Assembly (NCBI RefSeq): GCF_016026235.1
Contig: NZ_CP065613.1
DNA: 64,000 nt
DNA from: Escherichia coli
GTDB lineage: Bacteria; Pseudomonadota; Gammaproteobacteria; Enterobacterales; Enterobacteriaceae
Strand: one strand, 5' to 3'
Positions 24,271-64,000 of the stretch are shown in pieces; within the stretch, counting starts at the first letter, position 1, and each line of letters opens with the position of its first letter. A model generated the notes under the pieces. That model did not search any database. It was not told where the DNA came from and worked only from the letters and a program-made list of their open reading frames with translations. Position numbers and translations under genes: made by a program.

Positions 24271-24521
24271 GAGTTCCCCGCGCCAGCGGGGATAAACCGA
24301 TGACAAAAATTTGCAGGTGCTGGCAGAGGCCGAGTTCCCCGCGCCAGCGGGGATAAACCGTCAGGTGGGATGGTCAGCGCGAAACACACGCCGAGTTCCC
24401 CGCGCCAGCGGGGATAAACCGAGCGCGCAGTTATCAGCCGCGACAACATGAAAGAGTTCCCCGCGCCAGCGGGGATAAACCGCTCATATACGTTACAGCG
24501 TCGGAAATGGAGGCGAGTTCC

Positions 24522-39105: not shown

Positions 39106-39368
39106 ATATTGCCGGATAAATTAAACGCCTCTGTCAGAAATGATGGGGGCGTTTTTATTTTGCGAGCAGCATTCCTGATTTTAAACGTGAACGCCGCTGG
39201 AAGAATTATCAGGTATAGAATGGCGTCGGGTGCTTGAGGCTGTCTGGCGTTAAGCATTCGCGAGGTTCCAGATGGACAAAAGCCCCAGGCGATATTTCTA
39301 TCAACCTGAGGCTCGCGTTCGAACGTAGCAATTCGAATGTTAGTCTCTTCTTTGCAGGGAGGCAAGAC

Positions 39369-39521
39369 ATGCTGACAAAATATGCCCTTGTGGCAATCAT
39401 AGTGCTGTGTTTTACAGTACTGGGATTCACGCTGATGGTAGGCGACTCGTTGTGTGAGTTGAGTATCAGAGAACGTGGTATGGAGTTTAAGGCTGTTCTC
39501 GCTTACGAATCGAAGAAGTAG
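39369..39521 (+). CDS. Hok/Gef-family type I toxin-like small membrane protein, 50 aa
   Basis: [51 protein letters not shown]-terminal TM helix plus Hok-family signature SLCEL-IR...A-LAYES-K (compare Hok ...[25 protein letters not shown], from memory); GGGAGG Shine-Dalgarno 6 nt upstream. Confidence 0.75.
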
Positions 39522-39542
39522 CCACCACGCGGGGGTAAAACC

Positions 39543-40303
39543 CCTGAGGAATCCCCAGAAAACAAGACAGGCATAGTGAGATGTGATCTAATTGATTGTG
39601 CTAACAATTTCAAGGAGATCACCACTATGCCTGCACGTTCATTATGCCAAAATTTCCTTAACAATATACTGGCCCCTTTGCATCTTTACCGTCAAAAATC
39701 ACTGATTGACGCAACTAATGCTGTAATAAATGGCGCTTCCCTCACACTTACCAGTATCGGGCGTCATTTAACCGGTACGGCATCAGTTAAAAACAAAATA
39801 AAGCGGGTGGATCGACTGTTGGGGAATCGACATTTGCAAAATGAGGTTTCCACCATTTTTCAGCGAATTACCCAAAAGATTACGCGGGGAATGTCTCGTG
39901 TTGTGATACTCATTGACTGGAGTGCTTATCATGCCTCTCGTTTTCAGCTTTTGCGGGCAAGCCTGGCATGTGACGGGCGTTCTTTACCGTTGATGAGTTG
40001 TGTCGTTCCATCATCACAGACAGCGAATGCAGATGTACATGAGCGTTTTCTGGAATCGCTTGCTGAGTGCTTTTCCCCCGGGACTGATGTCATTGTTATT
40101 ACAGATGCCGGTTTTCAGGGGCGATGGTTCCAACAGCTCCGCTCCCGTGGCTGGACCTATATTTGCCGGGTACTGGGCAATCATTATTACAATGTTGGTA
40201 ATGGCTGGGAAAAGGTGTCGGACTCAGGCACAAAAGCATCAACGACAGCAATTTATTTAGGTGAAGGCCTGCTGGGTCGAGATAAAAATGCACAACATGA
40301 AGG
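39543..40303 (+). mobile_element. IS10-like insertion sequence (copy 3), left 761 bp only, truncated by IS4
   Basis: Begins CCTGAGGAATCCCCAGAAAACAAGACAGG 22 bp after the Hok-like stop; transposase frame (MPARSL... from 39627) is identical to copy 1 through ...KNAQHEG, then IS4 begins at 40304. Confidence 0.85.
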
Positions 40304-41729
40304 TAATGCCGATCAGTTAAGGATCAGTTGACCGATCCAGTGGCTGTGTAAGAATCCGGAAACGCTCACTTGTTTCCGGATTTTTTTATGCACATTGGAC
40401 AGGCTCTTGATCTGGTATCCCGTTACGATTCTCTGCGTAACCCACTGACTTCTCTGGGGGATTACCTCGACCCCGAACTCATCTCTCGTTGCCTTGCCGA
40501 ATCAGGTACTGTAACGCTACGCAAGCGCCGTCTTCCCCTCGAAATGATGGTCTGGTGTATTGTTGGCATGGCGCTTGAGCGTAAAGAACCTCTTCACCAG
40601 ATTGTGAATCGCCTGGACATCATGCTGCCGGGCAATCGCCCCTTCGTTGCCCCCAGTGCCGTTATTCAGGCCCGCCAGCGCCTGGGAAGTGAGGCTGTCC
40701 GCCGCGTGTTCACGAAAACAGCGCAGCTCTGGCATAACGCCACGCCGCATCCGCACTGGTGCGGCCTGACCCTGCTGGCCATCGATGGTGTGTTCTGGCG
40801 CACACCGGATACACCAGAGAACGATGCAGCCTTCCCCCGCCAGACACATGCCGGGAACCCGGCGCTCTACCCGCAGGTCAAAATGGTCTGCCAGATGGAA
40901 CTGACCAGCCATCTGCTGACGGCTGCAGCCTTCGGCACGATGAAGAACAGCGAAAATGAGCTTGCTGAGCAACTTATAGAACAAACCGGCGATAACACTC
41001 TGACGTTAATGGATAAAGGTTATTACTCACTGGGACTGTTAAATGCCTGGAGCCTGGCGGGAGAACACCGCCACTGGATGATACCTCTCAGAAAGGGAGC
41101 GCAATATGAAGAGCTCAGAAAACTGGGTAAAGGCGATCATCTGGTGAAGCTGAAAACCAGCCCGCAGGCACGAAAAAAGTGGCCGGGACTGGGAAATGAA
41201 GTGACAGCCCGCCTGCTGACCGTGACGCGCAAAGGAAAAGTCTGCCATCTGCTGACGTCGATGACGGACGCCATGCGCTTCCCCGGAGGAGAAATGGCGG
41301 ATCTGTACAGTCATCGCTGGGAAATCGAACTGGGATACAGGGAGATAAAACAGACGATGCAACTGAGCAGGCTGACGCTGAGAAGTAAAAAGCCGGAGCT
41401 TGTGGAGCAAGAGCTGTGGGGTGTCTTACTGGCTTATAATCTGGTGAGATATCAGATGATTAAAATGGCGGAACATCTGAAAGGTTACTGGCCGAATCAA
41501 CTGAGTTTCTCAGAATCATGCGGAATGGTGATGAGAATGCTGATGACATTGCAGGGCGCTTCACCGGGACGTATACCGGAGCTGATGCGCGATCTTGCAA
41601 GTATGGGACAACTTGTGAAATTACCGACGAGAAGGGGAAGGGCCTTCCCGAGAGTGGTAAAGGAGAGGCCCTGGAAATACCCCACAGCCCCGAAAAAGAG
41701 CCAGTCAGTTGCTTAACTGACTGGCATTA
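40304..41729 (+). mobile_element. IS4, 1426 bp, complete, no target duplication
   Basis: Termini TAATGCCGATCAGTTAAGGATCAGTTGACCG ... CTTAACTGACTGGCATTA; length matches IS4 from memory. Left flank is IS10-like interior, right flank is lysS 3' intergenic; flanks are unrelated. Confidence 0.9.
40388..41716 (+). CDS. insG: IS4 transposase InsG
   Basis: [40 protein letters not shown]... about 442 aa. Confidence 0.9.
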
Positions 41730-41764
41730 CGACATTTGCCGGGGTTATGAGCATAACGTAATGC

Positions 41765-43282
41765 TTATTTCACCGGACGCATCGCCGGGAACAGAATAAC
41801 ATCGCGGATGGTATGGCTGTTGGTGAACAGCATTACCATACGGTCGATACCAATCCCCAGACCTGCTGTCGGCGGTAAGCCATGTTCCAGTGCGGTAACG
41901 TAATCTTCATCGTAGAACATCGCTTCGTCGTCACCTGCGTCTTTCGCGGCAACCTGATCCAGGAAGCGTTGCGCCTGATCTTCCGCGTCATTCAGCTCGC
42001 TAAAGCCGTTACCGATTTCACGACCACCGATGAAGAACTCAAAGCGGTCTGTGATTTCCGGGTTAATGTCGTTACGACGCGCCAGCGGAGAAACTTCTGC
42101 CGGATATTCAGTAATAAAGGTCGGCTGAATCAGATGTGCTTCTGCCACTTCTTCGAAGATCTCGGTAACGATACGGCCCAGACCCCAGCTCTTCTCAACG
42201 TGGATACCGATAGATTCAGCAATCGCTTTCGCAGAGTCGAAGTTATCCAGATCCGCCATGTCGGTTTCTGGGCGATATTTCTTGATCGCTTCACGCATGG
42301 TCAGTTTTTCGAACGGTTTACCGAAGTCCAGCGTCACGTCGCCGTAGGTCACTTCCGTCTTACCGAGAATATCCTGTGCCAGAGTACGGAACAGCGATTC
42401 GGTCAGCTCGATCAGATCTTTGTAATCTGCGTAAGCCATGTAGAGTTCCATCATGGTGAACTCTGGGTTATGACGTACGGAGATACCTTCGTTACGGAAG
42501 TTACGGTTGATTTCGAATACACGCTCGAAGCCACCGACCACCAGACGCTTGAGGTACAGTTCCGGCGCGATACGCAGGTACATGTCGAGATCCAGCGCGT
42601 TATGGTGGGTGATAAACGGACGCGCAGCGGCACCGCCAGGGATCACCTGCATCATCGGCGTTTCAACTTCCATAAAGCCGCGGTTCACCATGAACTGGCG
42701 AATACCAGAGAGGATCTGCGAGCGTACTTTAAAGGTGTTACGGGATTCATCGTTAGAGATGAGATCCAAATAACGCTGACGATAGCGCGCTTCCTGATCC
42801 TGCAAGCCGTGGAATTTATCCGGCAGCGGACGCAGTGCTTTGGTCAGCAGACGCAGCTCGGTACAGTGGATAGACAGTTCGCCGGTTTTGGTTTTGAACA
42901 GTTTACCTTTCGCGCCGAGGATGTCGCCGAGGTCCCATTTTTTGAACTGCTCGTTGTAAACGCCTTCCGGCAGATCGTCACGGGCAACGTACAGCTGAAT
43001 GCGGCCCCCCACATCCTGCAGGGTAACGAAAGACGCTTTACCCATAATACGACGGGTCATCATGCGGCCAGCAACGGCGACTTCGATGTTCAGCGCTTCC
43101 AGTTCTTCGTTCTCTTTACCGTCGAATTCTGCGTGCAATTGGTCAGAGGTATGATCGCGACGGAAATCGTTCGGGAAGGCAATCCCCTGCTCGCGCAGGT
43201 TCACCAGCTTCTCACGACGCGTTTTCAGTTCATTGTTAAGATCGACTACCGCGTCAGCGCCCTGTGCGTGTTGTTCAGACAT
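41765..43282 (-). CDS. lysS: lysine--tRNA ligase LysS
   Basis: 505-aa [47 protein letters not shown]... Confidence 0.96.
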
Positions 43283-43291
43283 GTTGGTTCC

Positions 43292-44390
43292 TCATAACCC
43301 TGCTTTCAAACTTGCTTCGATAAATTGATCCAGGCTGCCGTCCAGCACGGCCTGCGTGTTGCGGGTTTCTACCCCGGTACGCAGATCTTTAATGCGGGAG
43401 TCATCAAGGACATAAGAACGAATCTGGCTGCCCCAGCCGATGTCAGATTTGTTATCTTCCATCGCCTGTTTCTCAGCATTTTTCTTCTGCATCTCCAGTT
43501 CATAAAGCTTCGCTTTCATCTGCTTCATGGCCTGGTCTTTGTTCTTGTGCTGGGAACGGTCGTTCTGGCACTGGGTCACGATCCCGGTCGGGATGTGGGT
43601 AATACGCACCGCAGATTCGGTACGGTTAACGTGCTGACCGCCCGCGCCGGACGCGCGATAAACGTCAATGCGCAGATCCGCCGGGTTGATTTCGATATCA
43701 ATATCATCATCAACTTCCGGATAAACAAACGCGGAGCTGAACGACGTGTGGCGACGACCGCCGGAGTCAAACGGGCTTTTACGCACCAGGCGGTGAACGC
43801 CGGTTTCTGTACGCAGCCAGCCGTAAGCGTAATCGCCGGAGATTTTGATAGTCACGGATTTAATACCCGCCACTTCACCTTCCGACTCTTCGATGATTTC
43901 AGTTTTGAAACCACGCGATTCTGCCCAGCGCAGATACATACGCTCAAGCATGCTCGCCCAGTCCTGTGCTTCCGTACCGCCAGACCCCGCCTGAATATCG
44001 AGGTAGCAGTCGGCGCTGTCATATTCGCCAGAGAACATACGGCGGAACTCAAGCTGCGCCAGTTTTTCTTCCAGGGCGTCGAGTTCAGCAACGGCTTCGT
44101 TAAAGGTTTCTTCGTCGTCAGCTTCTACAGCCAGTTCCAGCAGACCAGAAACATCTTCCAGCCCCTGTTTCATTTGGTCGAGGGTGTCGACAACGGCTTC
44201 GAGGGAGGAACGCTCTTTACCCAGCGCCTGTGCGCGTTCGGGTTCGTTCCAGACATCCGGCTGTTCCAGCTCGGCGTTTACTTCTTCCAGACGCTCTTTC
44301 TTGGCGTCGTAGTCAAAGATACCCCCTAAGAACGTCGGAGCGTTCCGTGAGGTCCTGAATGCGATTATTTACCGGATTAATTTCAAACAT
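43292..44390 (-). CDS. prfB: peptide chain release factor 2 (programmed +1 frameshift)
   Basis: Main frame 43292-44173 (293 aa, ...[16 protein letters not shown]...). N-terminal 25 codons from ATG at 44388-44390 ([25 protein letters not shown]) end at in-frame UGA in context CUU UGA C preceded by AGGGGG. Confidence 0.93.
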
Positions 44391-44480
44391 GGTCTGATTT
44401 CTTTTATTGAGCTAGTCAAAATGCGGTGATAAGAGCGGGATTGTACCCAATCCACGCTCTTTTTTATAGAGAAGATGACG

Positions 44481-46214
44481 CTAAATTGGCCAGATATTGT
44501 CGATGATAATTTGCAGGCTGCGGTTGCCGCGAAACTCGTTGATATCGAGCTTGTAAGCCAGTTGCACTTCGCGCACGCCGTTATCCGGCCAGAGGGCGGT
44601 ATCGACATTAAAAGCAATACCATCCAGCAGTGGACCGCCGCCGACCGGTTCGACCATCACCTTCAAATGACGTTCGCCCACCAGCCGCTGTTGCAGCAGA
44701 CGGAAATGACCGTCAAACAGCGGCTCCGGGAACATCTGCCCCCACGGGCCAGCATCGCGCAGCAGCTGCGCCACTTCCATGGTCATTTCGGCTGGACTTA
44801 ACGGACCGTCTGACACCACTTCGCCTTGCAATAGCGAAGGGTCCAGCCACTCAGTAACCAGTTCGCCAAACCGTTGTTGAAAGAGTTCGAATTTATCCTC
44901 TTCCAGCGACAAACCCGCCGCCATCGCATGACCGCCAAACTTCAGCATCATGCCAGGGTAGAGTGTGTCTAATCGCTCCAGTGCATCACGCATATGCAGC
45001 CCCTGAATGGAGCGACCTGAACCTTTCAGTGTACCATCACCTGCTGGCGCAAAGGCGATAACCGGACGGTGAAAACGCTCTTTGATGCGCGAAGCCAGAA
45101 TACCGACAACGCCCTGATGCCATTCGGGGTGATACATTGCCAGCCCGCCGGGTAGCGAGTCGCGGCTGCGCTCCAGTTTCTCGCACAGGGTCAGGGCTTC
45201 AACTTGCATTCCTTGTTCGATCTCTTTTCGCGTCTGGTTTAGCGCATCGAGTTCATTTGCCAGCACGCGCGCTTCGCCGATGTTGTCGCACAGCAACAGC
45301 GCCACACCGACGGACATATCGTCCAGTCGTCCGGCAGCATTGAGACGTGGCCCCAGCGCAAAACCTAAATCGCTGGCGGCGAGTTTTTGTGCATCACGGT
45401 TTGCCACTTCAAGCAGCGCTTTAATCCCCGGACGGCACTTTCCGGCTCGGATGCGACTCATCCCCTGCCAGGTCAGAATGCGATTATTAGCGTCCAGCGG
45501 CACGACGTCCGCCACTGTCCCCAGCGCGACCAGATCCAGCAGTTCTGCCAGGTTAGGAATTGCGATGTTACGCTCATCAAACCAGCCCTGATCGCGCAAA
45601 AAGGTGCGCAGCGCCAGCATCAGATAAAACGCCACACCCACGCCTGCCAGTGATTTCGACGGGAAATTACAGTCGCGCAAGTTAGGGTTAATGATCGCTT
45701 CCGCTGCGGGTAATGTGTCGCCTGGCAAATGGTGATCGGTAACAATAACCGGGATGCCCAACGAGCGAGCGTGCTCAACCCCCGCATGGGAGGAAATACC
45801 GTTATCCACCGTGACAATTAACTGCGCGCCACGGGCATGGGCCTGATCGACCACTTCCGGGCTTAAGCCGTAACCGTCTTCGAAACGGTTTGGTACCAGG
45901 TAGTCGATATTGCTGCAACCAAGCGAGCGCATCGCCAGCACGCTTAGAGCCGTGCTGGTCGCACCGTCGGCGTCGAAATCACCGACCACAATAATCCGCG
46001 TTCCTTCGCGAAAAGCGTTGTAAAGGATCTCAACGGCCTTTTCGACGCCGCTCAGTTGCTGCCAGGGCAACATACCTTTAACACTGCGTTCCAGTTCTTG
46101 CGCACTGCGTACTCCCCGGCTGGCGTATAAACGGCGCAGCAAGGGAGGCAATTCAGCGGGCAAGTCTGCCGTTTCATCGACTTCACGGCGACGAAGTTGT
46201 ATCTGTTGTTTCAC
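44481..46214 (-). CDS. recJ: single-stranded-DNA-specific exonuclease RecJ
   Basis: 577-aa ORF with DHH motifs. Confidence 0.95.
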   Translation of the reverse strand: MKQQIQLRRREVDETADLPAELPPLLRRLYASRGVRSAQELERSVKGMLPWQQLSGVEKAVEILYNAFREGTRIIVVGDFDADGATSTALSVLAMRSLGCSNIDYLVPNRFEDGYGLSPEVVDQAHARGAQLIVTVDNGISSHAGVEHARSLGIPVIVTDHHLPGDTLPAAEAIINPNLRDCNFPSKSLAGVGVAFYLMLALRTFLRDQGWFDERNIAIPNLAELLDLVALGTVADVVPLDANNRILTWQGMSRIRAGKCRPGIKALLEVANRDAQKLAASDLGFALGPRLNAAGRLDDMSVGVALLLCDNIGEARVLANELDALNQTRKEIEQGMQVEALTLCEKLERSRDSLPGGLAMYHPEWHQGVVGILASRIKERFHRPVIAFAPAGDGTLKGSGRSIQGLHMRDALERLDTLYPGMMLKFGGHAMAAGLSLEEDKFELFQQRFGELVTEWLDPSLLQGEVVSDGPLSPAEMTMEVAQLLRDAGPWGQMFPEPLFDGHFRLLQQRLVGERHLKVMVEPVGGGPLLDGIAFNVDTALWPDNGVREVQLAYKLDINEFRGNRSLQIIIDNIWPI

Positions 46215-63069: not shown

Positions 63070-63255
63070 ATTTCTCTGAGATGTTCGCAAGCGGGCCAGT
63101 CCCCTGAGCCGATATTTCATACCACAAGAATGTGGCGCTCCGCGGTTGGTGAGCATGCTCGGTCCGTCCGAGAAGCCTTAAAACTGCGACGACACATTCA
63201 CCTTGAACCAAGGGTTCAAGGGTTACAGCCTGCGGCGGCATCTCGGAGATTCCCT
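63070..63255 (+). ncRNA. ssrS: 6S RNA (RNA polymerase sigma70-holoenzyme regulator)
   Basis: ATTTCTCTGAGATGTTCGCAAGCGGGCCAGTCCCCTGAGCCGATATTTCATACCACAAGAATGTGGCGCTCCGCGGTTGGTGAGCATGCTCGG... matches E. coli 6S RNA from memory; directly downstream of zapA, upstream of fau. Confidence 0.92.
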
Positions 63256-63876: not shown

Positions 63877-64000
63877 GGGCGATACACCTGCATCGCGCTG
63901 ATTGACATCGTTGATTCTTTAACCTAATTTAGTGAGTAAGGGTAAGGGAGGATTGCTCCTCCCCTGTGACTGACTGTTAATAAGCTGGGAAACTTATGAG

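Follow-up and report, generated by a model that had tools for sequence, protein, structure and literature searches.

The interrupted reading frame of prfB, the gene for release factor 2 (RF2), found in the window (the whole 64-kb stretch of DNA that was analysed) is almost certainly the canonical autoregulatory +1 programmed ribosomal frameshift of Escherichia coli, with a probability of about 0.98 as judged from the sequence and its comparison with known genes. The site spans positions 44330-44312 on the minus strand and reads CTTAGGGGGTATCTTTGAC. It is an already known, textbook example, identical to the reference, and adds nothing new on recoding. Its consequence is one of annotation only: the two pieces of prfB belong in one joined CDS with ribosomal slippage, and neither a pseudogene nor an assembly error should be flagged. 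The gene, its two reading frames and the elements of the site are the following:

43292..44390, minus strand: prfB (release factor 2), complete; 1,099 nt, two frames joined by a +1 shift, 365-aa product
44313..44390, minus strand: ORF0 of prfB; ATG plus 24 more sense codons, with an in-frame UGA as codon 26
43292..44314, minus strand: +1-frame ORF of prfB; GAC (Asp26) to Leu365, with the TGA stop at 43294-43292
44322..44327, minus strand: internal Shine-Dalgarno-like AGGGGG, 3 nt (TAT, 44321-44319) before the CUU shift codon
44315..44318, minus strand: slippery CUU U; CTT at 44318-44316, then T at 44315
44312..44315, minus strand: weak RF2-specific stop signal UGA C; TGA at 44315-44313 and the 3' C at 44312

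The region 43200-44520 of the window was read, and the start ATG of prfB was located at 44390-44388 on the minus strand. Translation from this codon gave 25 sense codons before the TGA at 44315-44313, in agreement with the program-made list of open reading frames. From GAC at 44314-44312, the +1 frame is open for 340 sense codons (44314 to 43295) up to the TGA at 43294-43292. The initial annotation had described a minus-strand ATG, a UGA after codon 25 in the context CUU UGA C, a Shine-Dalgarno-like AGGGGG before it and the other 340 codons in the +1 frame, all of which was confirmed by reading and translation. The absence of the CUU UGA C motif had been named there as the observation that would speak against the assignment, and on re-inspection the motif was present.

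A premature stop in prfB has been reported in 64% of 12,753 bacterial species, with the consensus AGGGGG, 3 nt, CTTTGAC (PMC12421855), and the site in the window matches this bacterial consensus exactly (AGGGGG / 3-nt spacer / CTTT / TGA / C), without any difference. All five elements defined in the literature were found. A premature UGA, readable by RF2, lies near the 5' end of the gene at codon 26, a CUU Leu codon stands directly 5' of this U-initial stop, and a C (44312) follows directly 3' of it, giving the weak UGAC context. The Shine-Dalgarno-like AGGGGG is placed 3 nt upstream of CUU, with the spacing given in PMC12421855, and from the shift site onwards the +1 frame encodes the remainder of RF2 unbroken. 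The 16-mer AGGGGGTATCTTTGAC occurs only once in the 64-kb window with 2 mismatches allowed, about 0.01 occurrences being expected by chance from shuffled sequences. When the whole window was scanned with Rfam at gathering thresholds, no family covered the prfB site, for which Rfam has no model.

Joining the 25 and 340 codons results in a protein of 365 aa. The NCBIfam model for prfB, TIGR00020, matched this joined product with 525.9 bits (cut-off 370), and the match runs unbroken over residues 12-362, across the 25/26 junction. For RF1, the models gave 304-306 bits, under their own cut-offs of 400 and 423. The Pfam domains PCRF (PF03462, residues 31-219, 207.5 bits) and RF-1 (PF00472, residues 228-337, 146 bits) were also recognised, as were the SPF tripeptide, by which RF2 recognises stop codons, at residues 205-207 (in ...RKSPFDSGG...) and the catalytic GGQ motif at residues 250-252 (nt 43642-43634, in ...SGAGGQHVN...). 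The product is thus placed in the RF2 family by a score above both the curated cut-off and RF1, together with the presence of GGQ and SPF. Comparison with the Protein Data Bank showed the joined product to be gap-free over residues 1-365 with the crystallised E. coli RF2 1gqe, and likewise with the K-12 sequence of 1ml5, which also occurs in 5mdv and numerous other ribosome complexes. That both frames together make up a complete RF2, colinear with a solved protein, is a stronger case against chance than the rarity of the 16-mer.

The same alignments bear on whether the region might instead hold two genes, namely one for a leader peptide of 25 aa and one for an RF2 that lacks its N-terminal part and is initiated at an internal ATG (44173-43292, 293 aa). 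Such an ATG-initiated 293-aa ORF does exist in the +1 frame, but residue 25/26 lies inside one unbroken alignment both with the family profile (from residue 12) and with the solved structures (from residue 1). In addition, an internal start would remove the conserved residues 1-72, and there is no stop between 44314 and 44173, the +1 frame being open from the shift site itself. An arrangement of two genes is therefore considered very improbable.

The reference for the base-by-base comparison was prfB of K-12 MG1655 (NC_000913.3, b2891), which is annotated as a CDS joined from two pieces and whose +1 programmed frameshift site was reportedly described by Craigen and Caskey in 1986 and by Weiss et al. 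in 1987. This alignment, which the initial annotation had proposed as a check, gave 1,099 nt in both genes, which differ by 6 substitutions and by no insertion or deletion. Within the recoding region (50 nt around the site) and over the 130 nt that precede the ATG, no difference was found. Both genes also share the 25 + 340 split, the recJ and lysS neighbours and the length of the product. With the +1 shift applied, five of the six substitutions, all elsewhere in the gene, are synonymous, and the only amino-acid difference from K-12 RF2 is Ala246 (GCG, 43654-43652, minus strand) in place of Thr246 (ACG). In FDAARGOS_943, the nearest genome, prfB is 100% identical to the gene in the window; RefSeq labels it 'peptide chain release factor 2; programmed frameshift' and gives it as a two-piece CDS. 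Identity with K-12, the RefSeq label and the five elements of PMC12421855 support the earlier statement that this is an autoregulatory recoding site and that the split ORF is not a pseudogene, and no evidence against the canonical prfB frameshift was found.

The population was surveyed in 5,426 complete E. coli genomes, using as queries the 1,321-nt gene region and 80 nt centred on the site. The gene region was present in exactly one copy in 5,425 of them, always annotated as prfB and flanked by recJ and lysS. The 80-nt site was likewise found once in each of 5,425 genomes at 95-100% identity; it was at least 99% identical in 4,406 genomes and 95-99% identical in the remainder.

Inactivation of prfB by a real 1-nt insertion, which would make it a pseudogene here, has as its sole support the interruption of the frame at codon 26, but the single prfB copy of 5,425 of the 5,426 genomes carries the same interruption, and K-12, which shares it, makes an RF2 that has been crystallised. 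The +1 frame remains open for 340 codons, and the prevalence of synonymous changes (5/6) in the comparison with K-12 also speaks against loss of function. Moreover, RF2 is essential in E. coli. The chance that the gene is inactivated is thus practically negligible.

Three of the 80-nt records that were not identical were inspected. In two of them (98.8% identical over the 80 nt), the lone change was TAC to TAT at Tyr27, synonymous in the +1 frame; a third-position synonymous change of this kind is as predicted by selection on the shifted frame. The third variant, from BH100 substr. MG2014 (NZ_CP024650.2; 1301-1379), shares this change at Tyr27 and, in addition, has GGGG instead of GGGGG in the Shine-Dalgarno-like element. 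Its prfB is consequently in a single frame, with LRGIFD replacing LRGYLD, and RefSeq gives an ordinary unjoined CDS. The GGGG is probably a homopolymer assembly error; if real, it would represent a natural prfB allele without the frameshift. This record indicates that length variation, real or artefactual, occurs at the homopolymer, but a sequencing or assembly error in the window itself (a homopolymer miscall in TTT or GGGGG, the true gene being a single ORF) can be set aside, since every base of the site is the same as in K-12 and in thousands of independent assemblies and the outlier is BH100.

For the canonical frameshift at prfB, the slippage mechanism and the role of the stop context have been described (PMC12421855), and published experiments on the identical K-12 sequence, as summarised in PMC12421855, have demonstrated frameshifting with an efficiency that falls as RF2 rises. 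According to this scheme, ribosomes would initiate at the ATG at 44390 and read 25 codons, which would bring CUU (Leu25) into the P site and UGA-C into the A site. When RF2 is abundant, the weak UGA C would be recognised and a 25-aa peptide released. When RF2 is scarce, the ribosome would pause, and the AGGGGG located 3 nt upstream would pair with the anti-Shine-Dalgarno tail of the 16S rRNA. The peptidyl-tRNA-Leu in the P site would then re-pair from CUU (44318-44316) to UUU (44317-44315), GAC (Asp26) would be decoded in the +1 frame, and translation would go on through 340 codons to the 365-aa RF2. As a net effect, RF2 synthesis would be limited by RF2 itself.

Other bacterial recoding sites include the -1 frameshift of dnaX and those of the IS1 and IS3 transposases. 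Like the prfB site, these have an internal Shine-Dalgarno-like sequence that stimulates the frameshift. They differ from it in the -1 direction of the shift, in the use of a heptanucleotide slippery site and, usually, a downstream structure, and in having no governing stop codon that is read by the gene's own product. As a separate observation, insertion sequences whose transposases are labelled 'programmed frameshift' by RefSeq in FDAARGOS_943 have copies or relatives within the window.

With regard to residue 246, Thr is a known oddity of the K-12 lineage. The canonical residue is Ala or Ser, and the Ala246 form of RF2, found in E. coli B and in other lineages too, is more active than the Thr246 form (PMC5373646). 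The presence of Ala246 indicates that the window does not come from a K-12 strain.

In the window, prfB lies in the conserved order xerD-dsbC-recJ-prfB-lysS, between the following genes:

41765..43282, minus strand: lysS (lysine--tRNA ligase); its ATG (43282) is 9 nt past the prfB stop, as in K-12
44481..46214, minus strand: recJ, the upstream neighbour of prfB

The window is colinear with K-12 from 41730 rightwards, at 97.6-99.0% identity, in the order lysS, prfB, recJ, dsbC, xerD, fldB and onwards to gcvTHP, ubiHI, pepP, zapA, ssrS and sibC. A scan of 41600-44700 with simple promoter and terminator consensus sequences found no sigma-70-like site upstream of prfB, and the counts did not exceed those expected from shuffled sequences. 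The spacer between recJ (stop at 44481) and the prfB ATG (44390) contains an inverted repeat, AAGAGCGTGGATTG/CAATCCCGCTCTT, at 44431-44465, which is identical in K-12; part of it (44438-44453) appeared terminator-like in the simple scan, on the plus strand only.

The Rfam matches in the window were CsrB, 6S RNA, sok and a Sib RNA, and no others. Near the right-hand end, two RNAs were matched on the plus strand: 6S RNA (ssrS) at 63070-63253 (139.8 bits) and, at 63902-64000, a Sib antitoxin RNA (76.4 bits) of which only the 5' part falls within the window. Their arrangement is as in the ssrS-fau-sibC region of K-12. The ssrS-sibC interval has two Ibs toxin genes in FDAARGOS_943 and one in K-12.

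Colinearity ends 35 nt beyond the stop codon of lysS: in place of the idi of K-12, the window has IS4 to the left of 41730. Features on this side include:

about 40304-41729: IS4 element; transposase ORF at 40370-41716, plus strand (NF033592, 303.7 bits)
39541-40303: truncated ISEc60 copy, adjoining IS4 and next to the sokX hit
1587-1946: csrB (CsrB), Rfam match

From 1 to 41729, the window runs in descending K-12 order until it abuts lysS, with csrB, barA, gudP, relA, pyrG, the ygc genes, queD, cysJIH and hokX/sokX. In FDAARGOS_943, the left-hand segments are separated from prfB by about 105-150 kb, and their relative orientation is reversed. Gene order and orientation to the left of 41730 thus point to an inversion of roughly 150 kb, an apparent rearrangement with respect to both K-12 and FDAARGOS_943 that would be bounded by insertion sequences, with IS4 at an endpoint. 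The same IS4-lysS junction is seen in a few other E. coli genomes, e.g., RMDEC465 and MS 21-1.

The recoding site of prfB is untouched by IS4 or by the inversion. A strain-specific shift in prfB-lysS regulation, in which Ala246 RF2 or IS4 would alter, with respect to K-12, the set-point of the frameshift or the 3' terminus of the prfB-lysS transcript, is regarded as unlikely. The effect of Ala246 on the set-point is already known in principle from E. coli B vs K-12.

The sok antitoxin RNA match (RF01794, 106.7 bits) at 39228-39384 on the plus strand lies beside cysH and the truncated ISEc60, a position that fits the chromosomal hokX/sokX locus. In the ygc/cys region, insertion sequences were located at 24520-25816, 28481-29248, 31578-32883 and 39541-40303. 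Three are full or partial copies of ISEc60 (IS4-family) and one is IS1-like, 91% identical to IS1F of FDAARGOS_943. Against other E. coli, the ygc genes align only in fragments, 6 of which together cover 70% of the query. Like Shigella genomes, this genome is rich in insertion sequences, and the ygc/cys stretch has 35 matching places in FDAARGOS_943.
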